From Acidimicrobiales bacterium (GTDB taxonomy: Bacteria; Actinomycetota; Acidimicrobiia; Acidimicrobiales; GCA-2861595): DNA of 64,000 bases. Made by a program: the position numbers and the translations under genes. Positions 4,377-26,538 of the stretch are shown here, one piece after another. Below the pieces are notes generated by a model. That model did no database searches. It had not been told where the DNA came from and saw nothing but the letters and a program-made list of their open reading frames with translations. The stretch spans positions 135,865 through 199,864 of the forward strand of contig DATLOM010000018.1 of NCBI GenBank assembly GCA_035536185.1. The letters are read 5' to 3'. The stretch's first letter is position 1, and each line of letters starts with the position of its first letter.

Positions 4377-4413
4377 CTGCTACCTCGGGCGGTTCATGGG
4401 AAGAAGGGCCGAG

Positions 4414-4486
4414 CAGGGCAGGAGGGAGTCGAACCCCCAACCGCCGGTTTTGGAGACCGGTGCTCTGCCAGTTGAGCTACTGCCCT
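4414..4486 (-). tRNA. trpT: tRNA-Trp (anticodon CCA)
   Basis: The minus strand folds by hand into a cloverleaf: AGGGCAG-TA-GCTC..GAGC-A-CCGGT-CTCCAAA-ACCGG-CGGTT-GGGGG-TTCGACT-CCCTC-CTGCCCT-G. No CCA is encoded. Confidence 0.85.
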
Positions 4487-4560
4487 AGGGGCTCTGTCCG
4501 CCAGCAGGATAGCACCGGCCCCGCCGCCGCTCCCCAGGAAGAGGCGGCCGCGGCGCGAGG

Positions 4561-4926
4561 TCAACCGGCCAGGCGCATCTTCCGGCGGCCGCGGTTTGCC
4601 ATCACGAGGGCCCCGGCGGCGCCAGCGGCGGCCGTGGCCACCGCTATGCCGCCCAGGTAGGCGCCCCGCCGGCCAGCCAGCAGCGAGCGCATCGCACCTC
4701 GCTCGCCGGCCGCCTCGAGGTTGGCGAGGATGGCCGTGAGCGTGCCGGGAGCCGGCTGGAGAACGTCGGTACGCAGGTGGCGCAGCGCCTTCAGCAGCCT
4801 GCGGTACTGGACCAGCTCGGCCTGGCACCGCAAGCAGGCCTCGACGTGCGACCGAACCTGGGGATCGGCTTTCTCCGTGCCGTCGACGATCTGGGGCAGG
4901 AGGTCGGCGACGCGTTCACACCGCAT
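4561..4926 (-). CDS. Anti-sigma factor (zf-HC2 type, single C-terminal transmembrane segment)
   Basis: It starts at the internal ATG 4926 (MRCERVADLL...). The HxxxCxxC motif is HVEACLRC. The transmembrane segment is AYLGGIAVATAAAGAAGALVMA. It overlaps the 3' end of the sigma gene by 11 nt. Confidence 0.7.
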   Translation of the reverse strand: MRCERVADLLPQIVDGTEKADPQVRSHVEACLRCQAELVQYRRLLKALRHLRTDVLQPAPGTLTAILANLEAAGERGAMRSLLAGRRGAYLGGIAVATAAAGAAGALVMANRGRRKMRLAG

Positions 4927-5503
4927 GAGCGGTCTCCTCGCCGGTGAGCTCGCTCCGGAGGGGGAAGAGACGCTCCCGGAGCTTCTTGCGGGCCCGGTGC
5001 AGGCGGACCTTGGCCGCACCCTCGCTGATCCCGAGCTCGGCGGCGATGGCCTCGTGGGGAAGGTCGTAGATGTCCCGCAGCACCACGACGGCGCGCATCT
5101 CGGGTGACAGGCTCTGGAGGGCGGACTGCAGGATCCGCCGGTCGTCGCCGGCCCCCAGATGAGCGCCGGGGTCGCTGTCGACCGCCCTGGGGTCGGCCGC
5201 CGTCTCCTCGTCGCCGAGCTCGTCGTGGCGGTCCTTGGCCCGCCGTGACAGGTGGGTCACCGCGCAGTTGGCGGTGATCCGGTAGAGCCAGGTGTTGAAC
5301 TTGGCGTCGCCGCGAAAGCGCTTCAGGCCCTTCCAGGCCCGCAGGTAAGCCTCCTGCACCACGTCTTTCGCATCCTCCTCGTTGCCGGTCATCCGGAAGG
5401 CGAGGGTGTAGGCGTCGGCGTGTGTGACACGCACCAACTCCTCGAAGGCCGCCTGGTCGCCCGCTTTGGCCGCGGTGACCAGGTCAGCCAACTCCTGCGC
5501 CAT
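4916..5503 (-). CDS. ECF (sigma-70 family, group 4) RNA polymerase sigma factor
   Basis: The listed ORF is trimmed to ATG 5503 (MAQELADLV...). Region 2 shows DVVQEAYLRAWKGLKRFRGDAKFNTWLYRITAN. Region 4 shows REIAAELGISEGAAKVRLHRARKKL-like sequence. Confidence 0.85.
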   Translation of the reverse strand: MAQELADLVTAAKAGDQAAFEELVRVTHADAYTLAFRMTGNEEDAKDVVQEAYLRAWKGLKRFRGDAKFNTWLYRITANCAVTHLSRRAKDRHDELGDEETAADPRAVDSDPGAHLGAGDDRRILQSALQSLSPEMRAVVVLRDIYDLPHEAIAAELGISEGAAKVRLHRARKKLRERLFPLRSELTGEETAHAV

Positions 5504-5538
5504 CAGCCGGTTCGACTCGGCCGGAGCGGCAACGGTTA

Positions 5539-5703
5539 CTACCTGGTCTCTTTGTGGGAGGTGTGCTTGCGGTCCCACCGGCAGTACTTCTTCATCTCGA
5601 TGCGCTCGCGGTGGTTGGCCTTGTTCTTGGTGGTGATGTAGTTGCGCCGCTTGCACACCTCGCACGCGAGGGTGACCTTGACGCGCTTCTCGTTCCTGGC
5701 CAT
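5539..5703 (-). CDS. rpmG: 50S ribosomal protein L33
   Basis: Hand translation gives [54 protein letters not shown] (54 aa, below the ORF-track size cut-off). This is the typical L33 CxxC...C pattern and position. Confidence 0.9.
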
Positions 5704-5734
5704 CTGGCAACTCTACTTTCTCGTTCCCTGCGAG

Positions 5735-5808
5735 TAGCGGCGGTCGGATTCGAACCGACGACAACACGATTATGAGCCGTGTGCTCTAACCAACTGAGCT
5801 ACGCCGCC
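5735..5808 (-). tRNA. tRNA-Met (anticodon CAT; elongator-type acceptor stem, and a lysidine-modified tRNA-Ile is not excluded)
   Basis: Hand-folded cloverleaf: GGCGGCG-TA-GCTC-AGTTGGTTA-GAGC-A-CACGG-CTCATAA-TCGTG-TTGTC-GTCGG-TTCGAAT-CCGAC-CGCCGCT-A. Confidence 0.8.
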
Positions 5809-5812
5809 GCGG

Positions 5813-5885
5813 AGCCCTCTGTGGGAATTGAACCCACGACACCAGCCTTACCATGGCTGTGCTCTACCGACTGAGCTAAGAGGGC
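5813..5885 (-). tRNA. tRNA-Thr (anticodon GGT)
   Basis: Hand-folded cloverleaf: GCCCTCT-TA-GCTC-AGTCGGTA-GAGC-A-CAGCC-ATGGTAA-GGCTG-GTGTC-GTGGG-TTCAATT-CCCAC-AGAGGGC-T. Confidence 0.85.
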
Positions 5886-17493: not shown

Positions 17494-18297
17494 ATGACGG
17501 CCGACGCCTTCCGGGTGGTCGTCGCCGACGACTCCGTCGACATGAGGGATCTGCTAAGCGCCGCACTGGAGGCGACAGGTCGGTTCGAGGTGATCGCCCG
17601 GTGTGGCGACGGCACCGAAGCCCTCGAGGCCGTAAGGGACCAGCAGCCCGACCTCGCCCTGCTGGACCTGGGGATGCCCAACGTCGGGGGGATCGAGGTC
17701 CTTCCGGACCTGGTGGCCGCCTCGCCGCGCAGCCGGGTCATCGTGGTGTCCGGCTTCCCGAGGGGCCGGCTTGCCCACCTGACGCTTTCCCAGGGTGCGG
17801 TCGGCTACGTGGAGAAGAGCCTGTCGGCCAAGGCCATGGTCGACGACATCGTCTCGGTGGCGGGAATGATCGAGGCGGTTTCGTGGGCGCTGGCCGAGAA
17901 CCGGGCCCATCTCGAGAGGGACCCCCGCAGCAGTGCCGCCGCCCGTCGCTTCGTGGAGGAGACGTTGAGGCGATGGGAGTGCGACGACCTGCTGGACACG
18001 GTGAACCTCCTGGTTTCGGAGCTGGTCACCAACTCCGTCGTCCATGCCGACTCCGCGGCCGAGGTCGCCGTGCTGCTCAAGCCCCACGCCATACGCATCG
18101 AGGTCGCCGATCGGGGCCAGGCCGCTCTGGCGGTGCAGGAAGCCGACGAGACGGCCACTTCCGGGCGGGGCCTCGCCCTGGTGGAGGCCCTCTCCTCGTC
18201 CTGGGGTGTGGTCCCCGGCCACGATGGCAACACGGTGTGGTTCGAGGTACCCCGCCCGGACACCATGCCGCCCCGGCCGAGGATGGTGGCGCCGTAA
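17494..18297 (+). CDS. Receiver domain fused to an RsbW/SpoIIAB-like anti-sigma serine kinase (HATPase_c_2) domain
   Basis: REC shows VVVADDSVDMRDLL...LLDLGMPNVGGIE..VVSGF. The C-terminal part shows ARRFVEETLRRW..LLVSELVTNSVVHA...GRGLALVEALSSSWGV. Confidence 0.75.
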   Translation: MTADAFRVVVADDSVDMRDLLSAALEATGRFEVIARCGDGTEALEAVRDQQPDLALLDLGMPNVGGIEVLPDLVAASPRSRVIVVSGFPRGRLAHLTLSQGAVGYVEKSLSAKAMVDDIVSVAGMIEAVSWALAENRAHLERDPRSSAAARRFVEETLRRWECDDLLDTVNLLVSELVTNSVVHADSAAEVAVLLKPHAIRIEVADRGQAALAVQEADETATSGRGLALVEALSSSWGVVPGHDGNTVWFEVPRPDTMPPRPRMVAP

Positions 18298-18564
18298 CGC
18301 AACGCGCCGACTGAACCATCCCAGCGGCACTCCAAAGCTGGGAGCGGTGTCGGCCCTGGCCGTCGAATCCGGGCCTCGGCCGCGAGCGATGATCGAGACG
18401 CGGTAATGAGCGGCCCTTTCGGGGGCGAGGCCACGTTCAAGGACTGCCGGGCGATGCATAGAGGGCCAAAACAGCCAGACCTGGGACACGTCGCGGTTTG
18501 GATAACGATCGCCACTCGAGCAGGGTCGTCGGGGGCGCCGGGAGGCGCGCAGGCGCCCAATTAG

Positions 18565-18576
18565 GAACATCTGTTC
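18565..18576 (+). promoter_or_regulatory. LexA-type SOS box (GAAC-N4-GTTC) followed directly by a TATACT -10-like hexamer
   Basis: GAACATCTGTTC (with flanking G..GA) lies at 18565-18576. TATACT lies at 18579-18584. This is 45 nt upstream of the HNH gene ATG 18629, which has the RBS GGGAGG. Confidence 0.6.
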
Positions 18577-18628
18577 GATATACTTGGGCACAGGAAAAAC
18601 GCGAAGCCGAGTCGTGGGAGGCAGACGA

Positions 18629-20486
18629 ATGGGTGCACAGATTGACGTTGTCCGGGAGGCGGCAACCGAGGAGGTCCCGCTCGAGTACCTGGAGCGGGAG
18701 ATCTGCCAGCTGGGCAGCAACATCGCGGCGGCGACCTGCCGCTGGCTCATGCTGCTGGCCGAGTTCGACCGGCGCCAGGGCTGGGCGGTGTGGGGCGCCC
18801 GCTCGTGTGCCGAATGGCTCAGCTGGCGCTGTGGTGTCGGGGCCGTCGCCGCTCGTGATCATCTGCGGGTGGCGCACCGCCTCGGTGAGCTGAAGCTGGT
18901 GAGGGCGGGATTCGCCGCCGGCGAGCTGAGCTTCTCCAAGGTGCGCGCCATCAGCCGAGTCGCTACCGCCGAGACCGAGGCGACCCTGGTCGAGCTCGCC
19001 CGCCATGCCACCGCCAACCACATGGAACAGATCGCCCGTGCCTATCGGGGGCTCAAGCGCCGGATGGCCAAGGACGGGAAGGGCAAGGACCAGAAGGACG
19101 CCGGATACCTGCACTGGTACTGGGACGACGACGGGTACCTGGTCATCGTGGGCCGGTTCCCCCCCGAAGAGGGCGCCGTCTTCATACAGGCGCTCAACGC
19201 GGCCAGAAGTGCGCTGGCCGGCGAGCCCGAGAAGGATGAGCCGAGCGCCGACGATTCCGCGGAATCGCTGCCCACATCGCCCTTTCCCACCGATCGTCAC
19301 GATTCCGCGGAATCGTTGACCTCGTCGGGCGATCAGGCTGCTCCCAATGATTCCGCGGAATCGGGGCCCTCGTCGCCCGATCAGGCCGCTCCGGACGATT
19401 CCGCGGAATCGCTGGCCTGGCCGGCCGAACACAGCGGTCGCGATGACCTTGCGGAATCGCAGACCAGGGACCCGCGCGATTCCGCGGAATCCTGGACGCC
19501 GCCGGCCGGTGCCACAGAGGGTCCCGCTGCAGCGACAGGTTCCGGCGATTCCGCGGAATCGCGTTTGGGCAACGCCGGGGGACGATTCCGCGGAATCGCT
19601 GTGGGCCGAGGAGGACGAGGAGTACCTCAACGGGTACTGGATGGTGCCCGAGGATGAAGAGTCCGGCGAGCTCATTTGGGTGGCCGGAGAGGTGCCAGAA
19701 GATGACGATTCCGCGGAAGCGGCCCCTGCGTGCCCCGGAGACAACGACCCAAGCGCACGAGCGCCCGCCGCAACCAGACGCGATTCCGCGGAATCGCGAC
19801 CGACCGCAGCAGATGCCCTCCTGTCCATGGCCGAGACGATGCTCCGCTACGGGCCCCAGGCCCGGGACGGCGGTGACCGCTACCAGGCCGTGGTGATCGT
19901 CGACGCCGAGGTCCTGGCCGGCGACGGACCTGGGCGCTGCGAGATCGACGACGGGCCGGCCATAGCTCCTGAGACCGCAAGGTTCATCACCTGTGACTCC
20001 AGCCTCGTGTTCACCATCCTGGGTGCCGGCGGTGAGCCGCTCAACGTGGGACGAAGCACCAAGACGATCCCCAGGGCCATTCGCCGGGCCCTCAGGCTGC
20101 GCGACGGGAAGTGCCGCTTCCCCGGCTGCACCCAGCGCCGCTTCGTCGACGGCCACCACATCCAGCACTGGTCACAAGGGGGCGAGACGTCGCTCGAGAA
20201 CCTCGTCCTGCTGTGCCGCGTCCACCACCGCAAGGTCCACGAGCAGAAGTTCGCCGTCCGCTACGACGGCGGCACCAAGTTCACCTTCACCCGCCCCGAC
20301 GGCACCCTGATCCCCGAGGCCCCGACCGCAGTCCCCGCGCTCGAGGGCCACGTCGTCAAGGCTAACCGGCAGCTCGGCCTCAGCATCGGCCCCGACACCG
20401 CAAGCAGCCTGTGGGCCGGCGAGCAACTCGACCTCGCCATGGTCATGGATGGCCTTCTCGTCCTGGAGGCCCGCAACCTCAACTAG
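18629..20486 (+). pseudogene. DUF222 / HNH endonuclease (REP13E12-like), interrupted by a +1 frameshift near 19576-19581
   Basis: The N-terminal DUF222-like part (ICQLGSNIAAATCRWLMLLAEFDRRQGW...FSKVRAIS) is in the frame of ORF 18584-19657. The C-terminal HNH part (CRFPGC...DGHHIQHWSQGGETSLENLVLLCRVHHRKVHE) is in the frame of ORF 19347-20486. The frames switch between palindrome copies 7 and 8. Confidence 0.8.
19252..19796. repeat. Ten copies of the perfect palindrome (C)GATTCCGCGGAATC(G) inside the HNH gene
   Basis: Copies start at 19253, 19301, 19349, 19397, 19445 (degenerate), 19478, 19547, 19584, 19707 (degenerate) and 19782. The first five are exactly 48 bp apart. Each is read as DSAES in frame. 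Confidence 0.9.
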
Positions 20487-21459: not shown

Positions 21460-22353
21460 TCAGCGGCTGAGATGGGCGGTGACGTTGCCGGCGTCATCGA
21501 CCCCGTACACGTCGAGTTGCAGAGTCCGCCGGATCGCCTCTGGTACGCGAAGGGCACCGGCGACGTGACGTTCCGGTACGACGATCGCGTAGCGCACGCC
21601 GTCGCTGTCGTCGCTCATGCGCCGGAGTAGCTGTCCATACCCGGTGTCGATGTCGAGGTTCGGCGCCAAAGTCGAGCCCTTTGCCTCCGCCACCAGGCGC
21701 TCGACCCCTCGGGTCGCGACGACATCGGCCCAGTCGACCTCCGTCTCGACGTCCCATCCCCGCGAGCGCAACCACGTTGAGAAGCCTGCGACGACGACGG
21801 CCTCGCTCGGTCCGGTTGTGGCGTTCCGGCTCGTCCGCCGGCGGGCGCTCTGGAGCAATGGGACCGGGTCGAAAGGGACGAGCGGCGTGGAGCGCCCCAG
21901 GCGTTGTGGATGGCGGGGGTGGCCCTTGCTCGTGGTCCCAAAGCACCACAGCTGGTGGGAGGCGACGAACCGGAGCACCGATGTTACGCGATCCGAGAAA
22001 TGTGATCCCTGCTCGCCCCAGCCAACGACGATGATGTCGGCGTCGCGCAGGTGTCGTGCGATCGTGGCGTCATTGTCCGGCCCGACGGGATCGGGATGCG
22101 ACCGCAAGAGCGCGGGGTCGGTGGTCCGAAGGGCGAACAGGTTGACGATCGTGACCGTTCCGACGGAGTGTTTTGGGATGGACACGGCGAACCGGAGCAC
22201 CGCGGCAACGGTGGGGTCGTCGCTGGTCTCGTCAGCGGTAGAGGGGTTGAGCAAGACGAGCACGGCCTGCGCGCCGTTTCCCAGCGTGCGCGTGAGGTCG
22301 TAACGGTAGATCCCATCGTCACTGATGGTCGCCGTCCGCTCCACGCCCCACAT
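21460..22353 (-). CDS. DUF1643-like N-terminal domain fused to a PD-(D/E)xK-type (restriction-endonuclease-like) C-terminal domain
   Basis: The N-terminus shows VLLNPSTADETSDDPTVAAVLRFA...VNLFALRTTDPALL. The C-terminus shows GWDVETEVDWADVVATRGVERLVAEAKG, which fits the D...E-x-K pattern. Confidence 0.6.
   Translation of the reverse strand: MWGVERTATISDDGIYRYDLTRTLGNGAQAVLVLLNPSTADETSDDPTVAAVLRFAVSIPKHSVGTVTIVNLFALRTTDPALLRSHPDPVGPDNDATIARHLRDADIIVVGWGEQGSHFSDRVTSVLRFVASHQLWCFGTTSKGHPRHPQRLGRSTPLVPFDPVPLLQSARRRTSRNATTGPSEAVVVAGFSTWLRSRGWDVETEVDWADVVATRGVERLVAEAKGSTLAPNLDIDTGYGQLLRRMSDDSDGVRYAIVVPERHVAGALRVPEAIRRTLQLDVYGVDDAGNVTAHLSR

Positions 22354-26453: not shown

Positions 26454-26538
<85 letters not shown>

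Follow-up and report, generated by a model that had tools for sequence, protein, structure and literature searches.

The window analyzed here, a 64-kb stretch of an Acidimicrobiales metagenome-assembled genome (MAG; contig DATLOM010000018.1), contains a DUF222-HNH (REP13E12-type) nuclease gene in which a short palindrome is repeated ten times. Based on the codons used for the repeated peptide DSAES and on paired changes in distant homologues, the constraint on this palindrome acts on the DNA. Comparison with related genes suggests that the array is a lineage-specific amplification, in 48-bp units, of a palindromic DNA-level element common to the whole gene family. Whether the palindromes are binding sites cognate to the DUF222-HNH protein encoded by the same gene is a question on which we lean neither way strongly, giving this explanation, which we favor, about even weight.

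A search of the whole window for the 14-bp core GATTCCGCGGAATC at up to two mismatches recovered nine matches against 0.40 expected, a number reached in none of 100 shuffles, with no match outside 19252-19798. Eight of these are perfect (starting at 19253, 19301, 19349, 19397, 19478, 19547, 19584, and 19782), and with their flanking bases the array copies grow to palindromes of 16-20 bp. Of the 19 perfect palindromes in the 64 kb whose arms are 7 or longer, eight fall in the same interval, the remaining 11 being at chance level (8.1 ± 2.1 expected). A chance origin of the array is rejected on both counts. An earlier reading made from the sequence alone (the sequence-only reading) had counted ten copies, eight perfect and two differing by 1-2 nt; the eight perfect copies and a copy with one mismatch are retained, but the copy at 19445 is off by 4 nt (table 1). 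The spacings it gave, 48 bp four times and then 33, 69, 37, 123, and 75 bp, follow from the copy positions. It was mistaken in taking all the spacers to be unrelated, as those of the 48-bp units are related (Tandem Repeats Finder; table 1), and this tandem repeat generated the first copies of the array. It also placed the array between DUF222 and HNH, whereas the copies lie inside the Pfam DUF222 model, which is broken at about profile position 190. No promoters or terminators were found within the array. A clustered regularly interspaced short palindromic repeat (CRISPR) array was considered and rejected: the repeat is only 14-20 bp long and lies inside an open reading frame (ORF) that is conserved among homologues, the spacers are interrelated and homologous between orthologues, and there are no cas genes nearby.

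Table 1. Coordinates of the palindrome copies and associated features in the window
Feature	Positions	Strand	Remarks
LexA/SOS-box-like palindrome	18563-18578		AGGAACATCTGTTCGA (GAAC-N4-GTTC; actinobacterial type); 53 bp 5' of start codon
DUF222-HNH (REP13E12-type) nuclease gene	18629-20486	+	+1 frameshift as sequenced; Pfam
DUF222 N-terminal helical domain	18629-19240	+	Predicted ParB/Noc-like DNA-binding fold; AlphaFold2 and Foldseek
Putative helix-turn-helix	18893-18961	+	Helix aa 89-96, turn with Gly98, helix aa 102-111 (GELSFSKVRAISR; GELSYSKVRA)
48-bp tandem repeat	19251-19418	+	3.5 units, 75% matches; Tandem Repeats Finder
Copy 1	19252-19267		CGATTCCGCGGAATCG (DSAES); perfect palindrome; upstream linker edge
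Copy 2	19299-19316		ACGATTCCGCGGAATCGT; perfect palindrome, 18 bp
Copy 3	19349-19362		GATTCCGCGGAATC; perfect palindrome
Copy 4	19396-19411		CGATTCCGCGGAATCG; perfect palindrome
Copy 5	19445-19458		GACCTTGCGGAATC (DLAES); decayed, 4 mismatches, right half-site alone intact
Copy 6	19478-19491		GATTCCGCGGAATC; perfect palindrome
Copy 7	19545-19562		GCGATTCCGCGGAATCGC; perfect palindrome, 18 bp
Five-G run	19574-19578	+	Probable +1 frameshift site (mutation or assembly error)
Copy 8	19583-19598		CGATTCCGCGGAATCG; perfect palindrome
Copy 9	19707-19720		GATTCCGCGGAAGC (DSAEA; GAAGC); 1 mismatch
Copy 10	19779-19798		CGCGATTCCGCGGAATCGCG; perfect palindrome, 20 bp; downstream linker edge, directly 5' of conserved RPTAADAL block
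HNH nuclease motif	20139-20244	+	Pfam PF01844, 35.7 bits (cut-off 21.4), E 9.7e-9

Codon usage was compared among four genes, that of the window and three relatives at 64-78% amino-acid identity, of which two are paralogues from a single MAG. Across all four DSAES is written GAT TCC GCG GAA TCN in 22 of 23 motifs, with TCG as the last codon in 21. From the codon usage of the same genes, the exact series GAT TCC GCG GAA TCG has a probability of 4e-4 per motif, and a palindromic DSAES of any kind has a chance of 0.07. The sequence-only reading had proposed constraint at the DNA or RNA level, and this is borne out: the synonymous positions of the motif are invariant as it described, the homologues do not encode the motif with freely varying codons, and the same DNA is found in a second reading frame and in noncoding DNA. 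Its observation that antisense ORFs also read DSAES and RFRGI is likewise correct.

Distant homologues carry other peptides at the same place, namely DAAAS, DPAGS, ASAEA, GSAEP, VSAET, and RSAER, all of them products of GAT-NCC-GCG-GN'A-TC and NNT-TCC-GCG-GAA-N'N' with complementary N and N'. Among 120 homologues, the inner residues of D-x-A-x'-S are paired as S..E (52), A..A (21), and P..G (6), with few off-diagonal combinations, and a T..V pair predicted from this pattern was later found as VTAVT. The outer residues pair across the family as D..S, V..T, A..A, G..P, or R..R. The DNA underlying the paired changes was confirmed in fetched loci as CGATGCCGCGGCATCG, CGATCCCGCGGGATCG, GACGTTACCGCGGTAACGTC (the T..V form), GCTTCC..GGAAGC, and GGTTCC..GGAACC; locus L001 carries CGATGCCGCGGCATCG and GACGATCCCGCGGGATCGTC, and locus L002 carries ACTCTTCCGCGGAAGAGT. 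In an alignment of 150 distinct sites, where T3, C5, G7C8, G10, and A12 are fixed by ascertainment and the other pairs are free, two-sided changes occupy 143 cells versus 64 ± 6 in shuffles (0 of 500 reach 143), and the covariation score is 0.256 versus 0.124, with slid partners scoring 0.06-0.15. An independent test anchored on CCGCGG found complementary flanks at 58-69% of sites in family genes, compared with 18-37% in the flanking DNA of these genes and the rest of the window. No peptide constraint predicts the observed residue pairings, and the constraint is therefore on the DNA.

A survey of 80 metagenomic loci encoding relatives gives the family palindrome the form NN-T-N-CCGCGG-N'-A-NN (NNTNCCGCGGN'ANN), most commonly (G)ACGTTTCCGCGGAAACGT(C), extending up to 22 bp with an arm length of 7 to 11. 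The family consensus is CGTTTCCG-CGGAAACG (16-mer CGTTTCCGCGGAAACG) and the window variant is CGATTCCG-CGGAATCG, the window 16-mer CGATTCCGCGGAATCG being the consensus with one symmetric change. Variants fall at positions 2/13, 4/11, and the centre, where CGCG was counted 92 times, AGCT 8 times, and AGCG 8 times; a CAGCTG centre differs by two silent changes, and CAGCGG is the intermediate. The sites occupy discrete positions of the family hidden Markov model (HMM): ~200-210 and ~271-279, which are the two edges of a disordered linker; ~399, 3' of the HNH motif and in the other reading frame, where the site encodes RFRGN; ~418; and ~450, at the C-terminus. The genes, 110 kb in total, contain about 110 sites, compared with ~4 in 129 kb of flanking DNA. 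The element accompanies the gene family in the Acidimicrobiia, Actinomycetes, Thermoleophilia, Kofleriaceae, Gammaproteobacteria, and Gemmatimonadota. Copies within one gene are nearly always of the same variant, even across frames and ~600 bp apart (L157, L181, L184, L144, L176, P0211), and mixed variants occur in L001 and L002.

Copies 1 and 10 of the window occupy both family-conserved linker-edge positions. Copy 10 corresponds to the conserved site near HMM position 275, which is the sole copy in homologue P0006, and the eight copies between the first and the last are a lineage-specific amplification common to homologues P0001-P0004; P0002 and P0004 have the variant copy 9 as well, at the corresponding position. 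The distant Rhodococcus/Ornithinimicrobium branch carries the site as GSAEP (GGTTCCGCGGAACC), found 38 times, together with CSAEH, RSAER, and, in the other frame, RFRGT. The DUF222-HNH gene of Rhodococcus erythropolis plasmid NZ_CP050126.1 has no internal palindrome. A CCGCGG-centred CGTCCCCGCGGGGACG lies 95 bp 5' of that gene (L204 16542-16557) and could be either the terminator of the upstream gene or a divergent site of the same class.

The window gene has DUF222 followed by HNH in one protein, as is typical of the DUF222-HNH (REP13E12-type) family, and its best homologues are annotated as DUF222 / HNH endonuclease. Pfam DUF222 (PF02720) scores 47.2 and 25.2 bits on the two halves (cut-off 24.4), and a profile search of the protein against the PDB matches only the HNH part, to the HNH domains of IscB, Cas8f-HNH, and McrA. 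As sequenced, the gene comprises two ORFs (18584-19657 and 19347-20486) owing to a +1 frameshift between 19561 and 19583, which is marked by the 37-bp spacing; therefore, the first seven and the last three copies are in different frames. Because removal of one G restores the frame (618 aa) and the unit pattern (…RLGNAGD-DSAES…, as in the other units), the run of five G is the probable site of the frameshift, which could either be genuine, inactivating the gene, or have arisen when short reads of a repetitive stretch were assembled into the MAG. The ORF is uninterrupted in homologues of 78% and 72% identity, and the NCBI product of the window gene is truncated to 342 aa (P0005, from an Acidimicrobiales MAG). 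The linker containing the array is predicted to be disordered, with a predicted local distance difference test score (pLDDT) below 50 over residues 201-361 in the AlphaFold2 model of the 78%-identical homologue P0001.

The GAAC-N4-GTTC motif upstream of the start codon (table 1) is the sole occurrence in the window, a single site that taken alone is not significant there. Across the family it is found at the 5' end in 13 of 57 loci, compared with a single occurrence in the remaining 177 kb of these loci. In Mycobacterium tuberculosis, six 13E12 genes are bound by LexA (PMC3381160), and 13E12 genes are ~400-fold enriched at inversion breakpoints (PMC13157036). Homology to paralogues covers 18617-20486 only, from 12 bp 5' of the start codon to the stop codon, which makes the ORF itself the repeated unit, and there are no transposon-like terminal repeats or conserved flanks. 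A related MAG (GCA_035525365.1) contains two full paralogues and one remnant. The MAG of P0002 and P0004 also has, on the minus strand, a degraded piece of DUF222 (L016 2185-2375; RDSAES-RRLTAADALLS...) in which one 20-bp palindrome is still perfect and another copy has decayed.

The array is also where related genes differ by recombination. P0003 and P0002, otherwise 94-98% identical, are distinguished by a 216-bp deletion, both ends of which are palindrome copies. The P0002 locus (L205) is 99.1% identical to L206 upstream of the array and 94.1% downstream (p = 1e-6), and it is 87.0% identical upstream and 92.2% downstream to L207, which encodes its paralogue in one MAG (p = 0.003). The window gene compared with each of L205, L206, and L207 is 84-86% identical upstream and 85-86% downstream, a difference that is not significant. 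The change in identity indicates sequence exchange between copies of the gene with a junction inside the array, and in these alignments the palindrome copies demonstrably act as recombination points.

Since the disordered linker made a fold search with the full-length model uninformative, the N-domain (the first 204 residues) was modelled alone with a 60-sequence alignment. The AlphaFold2 model is all-helical with a mean pLDDT of 90.2, and its nine best Foldseek matches in the PDB are all ParB, Spo0J, or Noc proteins (probability 0.97-1.0, E 0.06-0.3). Eight of the nine superimpose with a root mean square deviation (rmsd) of 2.4-3.4 Å over 78-106 columns; the Noc DNA-binding domain on its DNA (6y93) is also among the nine, with an rmsd of 5.6 Å over 119 columns, and Spo0J on parS (4umk) appears lower in the list. 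Conservation within DUF222 is highest in a helix-Gly-helix block, with G98, R106, A107, and R110 invariant in the 60-sequence alignment, and this block is nearly invariant across all palindrome classes. In the model, the helix at aa 102-111 is the putative recognition helix.

The palindrome itself resembles the sites of these proteins. Consensus parS is TGTTTCAC-GTGAAACA and the Noc site (NBS) is TATTTCCC-GGGAAATA (PMC7383237), parS being usually given as TGTTNCACGTGAAACA (TGTTNCAC...) with a degenerate N (PMC7022226). The degenerate N corresponds to position 4/11, the most variable in the DUF222 family sites. The GTTTC/GAAAC arms of the family consensus are identical to the parS arms, and the family site shares G at position 1 with parS and C at position 6 with the Noc site; its G at position 7 is new. 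Canonical parS is absent from the window.

We propose that the array and the other palindromes of the family serve as binding sites for the encoded DUF222-HNH protein. Among the roles listed by the sequence-only reading, a binding-site array for a dimeric protein is the one most supported, through the parS-like site and the ParB-like fold, and a recombination target is supported as well. Each half-site would be bound by one ParB/Noc-like helix-turn-helix of the DUF222 N-domain, giving two protomers per palindrome, and the C-terminal HNH nuclease, tethered via the disordered linker, would be brought to its own gene and a few other genomic sites. We predict that DNA damage de-represses the gene through the LexA box at its promoter, upon which the protein would reach the sites, and that the ten window copies arose by 48-bp tandem duplication in the disordered linker. 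Binding may throttle expression of the gene, acting as a roadblock, or as feedback, for an SOS gene that may be toxic, which is plausible because the sites precede and follow the nuclease-coding half. Alternatively, a nick or cut at the sites may lead to recombination or gene conversion between copies. A more ambitious form of the proposal, which we regard as tentative and rather doubtful, holds that DUF222-HNH (13E12) proteins are ParB-like, damage-induced site-specific nucleases that bind and cut or nick parS-like palindromes at the domain boundaries of their own genes and their paralogues, and so start short-tract conversion and ectopic recombination between copies. If true, this would amount to a self-targeting, SOS-triggered recombination system and would account for the mosaic paralogues, the mycobacterial 13E12 inversion and rearrangement hot spots, and the concerted way in which the sites evolve.

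Several observations weigh against binding by the encoded protein. The similarity to ParB is confined to the level of the fold, and the Foldseek E-values are weak. Alignment of the N-domain with Spo0J by hhalign gave a probability of 0.1 (using a Spo0J query verified against 6sdk), the PDB profile search returned no ParB match, and Pfam found DUF222 only, with no N-terminal ParB/Srx CTPase domain in the protein. Because the sequence relationship is undetected and the CTPase domain absent, we hold the ParB-like nature of the DUF222 domain to be supported at the fold level and not proven. The gene's neighbors, a response-regulator/HATPase fusion and a DUF1643 protein, include no ParA partner. 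No co-variation was seen between the putative recognition helix and the palindrome class, and direct base readout fails to explain the symmetry at 2/13 and 4/11 because the helix is the same despite the differing sites; the symmetry could stem from conversion in either orientation that homogenizes the half-sites, or from base pairing of the two arms in a single strand of DNA or RNA. About a quarter of the sites are mismatched at position 4/11. Intact target sites inside a nuclease's own gene would be self-destructive unless the enzyme only nicks or is tightly controlled, and the window gene, being frameshifted, may have no full protein product.

The symmetry could instead reflect structure in a single strand, whereby each copy forms a hairpin or cruciform, or two copies, each being the reverse complement of any other, anneal over 16-20 bp with the linker looped out. 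This could happen in the mRNA or in DNA that becomes single-stranded in the SOS response. These structures could be targets of RNase III or a structure-specific nuclease, pause the ribosome or polymerase, or promote slippage. We consider this unlikely, yet keep it as a serious rival because the recognition helix is constant and because the region 19240-19810 folded as DNA has z = -6.7, with the minimum-energy fold pairing different copies. Compensatory changes in the arms are the classic signature of a stem, the arm length varies from 7 to 11, and the centre mismatch CAGCGG is tolerated in eight sites, as in a loop. Structure would also account for symmetry that the conserved recognition helix seems not to read, and pairing between copies would explain their identity within a gene. 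However, the centre is mostly symmetric and sequence specific, neither of which a loop requires, and a lone hairpin would have a stem of just 5-7 bp. The rare codons GAT/GTT…GAA are kept though GAC/GTC…GAG would pair equally and fit the codon bias, indicating that particular bases matter and not pairing alone. Among mismatches G:T is not favored over C:A, so that an RNA-type wobble signature is lacking; Rfam 15 gave no family match, its only hit being a microRNA at chance level (E 0.33). The parS-like sequence and the ParB-like fold would remain unexplained.

Quite unlikely, in our estimate, is a functionless, self-propagating micro-repeat, in which slippage and short-tract conversion in both orientations create symmetry without selection and copies spread within tolerant disordered linkers and to other loci. 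It draws on the differences in copy number and spacing among close relatives, the deletion between two copies in P0003/P0002, the fast evolution of the spacers, the intergenic arrays in Paraconexibacter and other genomes, and the concordance of variants within genes, including a neutral-looking centre mismatch in both copies of L184. Turnover of this kind is difficult to reconcile with sites at the same four or five gene positions in very distant lineages and in two frames, which implies long-term retention, or with the perfect conservation of single-copy sites (e.g., P0006), the persistence of T3, C5, G7/C8, G10, and A12 against codon bias, and the very tight tie to one gene family (~110 sites vs ~4). 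A separate host-encoded dimeric binder, such as a conserved regulator or a divergent ParB/Noc/KorB paralogue, would fit the facts that parS and Noc sites, which the element resembles, are bound by stand-alone proteins, that copies exist away from DUF222 genes, and that the window sites are still perfect in a frameshifted gene. We nevertheless regard it as improbable, as the element follows the gene family across the six lineages named above, which is hard to achieve with a separate factor. Moreover, the loci with 1.5-kb flanks show no conserved neighbor (neighbor content not having been systematically analyzed), homology ends at the ORF, the encoded protein's own fold is suitable, and canonical parS, besides being missing from the window, differs at the specificity-determining position 6. 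Last, DSAES could be a functional peptide repeat, an acidic or phospho-acceptor linker motif whose DNA symmetry is incidental. All ten copies are in frame in the repaired protein and the linker is acidic and rich in Ser and Pro, but the chemically unrelated DAAAS, DPAGS, VTAVT, ASAEA, GSAEP, and RSAER keep the DNA palindromic, the same DNA encodes RFRGN/RFRGI in the other frame and also occurs in noncoding DNA, the codons are fixed, and the linker is predicted to be disordered. This explanation is effectively refuted, and we give it almost no credence.

The exact 16-mer was scanned across 185,579 genomes (596 Gb), for which ~200-300 chance matches are estimated. Among the 128 matches listed, 11 are in or beside recognizable DUF222-HNH genes, four of these sitting 130-450 bp 5' of the start, and most single matches in unrelated phyla fall in any reading frame, as fits chance. 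In the genome-wide comparison of coding and intergenic matches envisaged in the sequence-only reading, the palindrome recurs at other loci, including intergenic ones, and the count itself is uninformative because most single matches fit chance. The signal is limited to clusters within genomes and to matches adjoining DUF222 genes. At least 11 genomes have two to four 16-mer loci each, which is beyond chance and includes intergenic arrays; the site therefore also exists outside the DUF222-HNH genes in genomes that carry them. Pfam searches of the ORFs around the other 16-mer matches returned mostly nothing. A phage target was rejected as a candidate: in 2.9 million viral contigs the family 18-mer was found once and the window 16-mer five times, none near a DUF222 gene and all chance-like. 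A plasmid collection yielded two weak homologues only.

Some of these occurrences are of interest in their own right. The complete genome of Paraconexibacter sp. AEG42_29 (NZ_CP114014.1) has the 16-mer in apparently noncoding arrays, one of three copies at intervals of 114 and 94 bp and one of two copies separated by 45 bp, as well as in a 20-bp palindrome just past a stop codon and 130 bp 5' of its DUF222-HNH gene (L005 3160-3460; L101 1216-1280; L006 5024). In a Deltaproteobacteria MAG (L122 4794-5095), ACGATTCCGCGGAATCGCG occurs once per ~140-bp tandem unit in three units that are 92-93% alike and contain no recognizable gene. Candidatus Uhrbacteria, a low-GC genome (46%), carries the 30-bp perfect palindrome CATTCTGCGATTCCGCGGAATCGCAGAATG twice, 351 bp apart (L071 2111 and 2462) and unrelated to DUF222 genes. 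In a Solirubrobacterales MAG, a ~620-bp repeat of 87% identity, inverted between L042 7047-7667 and L072 225-816 and without any Pfam domain, ends a few bases past the palindrome, which may mark the end or target of this other repeat. In Acidobacteriota and related genomes (L015, L046, L092, L118) the 16-mer lies in one orthologous coding gene (…ERFRGIE…), where common descent of the protein sequence seems to explain its conservation, so that single matches need context.

The element invites comparison with several known systems, the closest being ParB/Spo0J-parS and Noc-NBS, which share a 14-16-bp perfect palindrome with the same arms and give the best matches to the N-domain model. They differ in the central four bases (CACGTG in parS and CCCGGG in NBS, versus CCGCGG here), in the sequence homology, CTPase domain, ParA partner, and origin-region link that are missing here, and in the HNH nuclease, the arrays, the sites at fixed coding positions, and the compensatory drift that characterize the DUF222 family; the window variant further has A/T instead of T/A at position 2. 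The first parS of Bacillus subtilis was found inside spo0J, a precedent for a site within the gene of its own binder. REP13E12 (DUF222) of M. tuberculosis is alike in combining DUF222 with HNH, in being multicopy, in fitting LexA/SOS control, and in being a recombination hot spot, to which the mosaic and deleted copies found here correspond. The closest Mycobacteriales representative compared is the Rhodococcus plasmid gene, which has no internal site, and many relatives in that branch are of the GSAEP type. The phiRv1 attB core in REP13E12 we take to be unrelated to the palindrome.

HNH homing endonucleases and HNH restriction enzymes resemble the DUF222-HNH proteins in joining HNH to a specific DNA-binding module, in having a palindromic site (as in dimeric type II enzymes), and in being encoded by stand-alone, selfish-looking genes. 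A homing endonuclease gene destroys its target on insertion, whereas the sites here are intact inside the gene, and no methyltransferase partner is present. A homing endonuclease with a disrupted target was accordingly rejected, the internal palindromes being intact and no target halves flanking the gene. REP/RAYT, the Rickettsia RPE, and mitochondrial GC clusters are similarly short palindromes tied to one nuclease gene family, with some dispersed or intergenic arrays and tolerance of in-frame coding insertions. In contrast to REP/RAYT, the nuclease here is HNH and not an HUH/Y1 transposase, and the element is only 14-22 bp long, perfectly symmetric, mainly intragenic at conserved positions, and present in few copies per genome.

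Taken singly, the components have known counterparts: helix-turn-helix proteins that bind palindromes, sites lying in the gene of their binder, and HNH nucleases. The novelty seems to lie in the way they are combined, with coding sites at domain boundaries kept by compensatory change that rewrites the peptide, and in open-access papers we found DUF222/13E12 genes connected neither with ParB nor with a palindrome inside the gene. Of the multicopy genes of the Actinomycetota that lack an explanation, those of the DUF222/REP13E12 type are some of the most common, and in M. tuberculosis they are SOS induced and mark the breakpoints of large inversions. The present results offer a testable hypothesis for them, consisting of a 16-bp site, a predicted ParB/Noc-type domain, an attached nuclease, and sites inside the gene. 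The family also presents a DNA element embedded in coding sequence that is preserved via paired changes rewriting the peptide from DSAES to DAAAS, DPAGS, or VTAVT. If the relationship to ParB is true, the DUF222 sites would constitute a third specificity class (G1...C6 G7) beside parS and NBS, and a new use of the fold.

The window gene is flanked by genes for a response-regulator receiver fused to a HATPase_c_2 domain and for a DUF1643 protein, and tRNA genes (Trp, Met, Thr, Tyr) are present elsewhere in the window; these neighbors and tRNAs, at 17494-18297, 21460-22353, 4413-5885, and 26454-26538, show no link to the array. Around the P0002 gene (contig DATLEK010000013.1) are PIN_2, NERD, UvrD_C, and PDDEXK_1 domains, a gene content that looks like a defence or mobile-element island.

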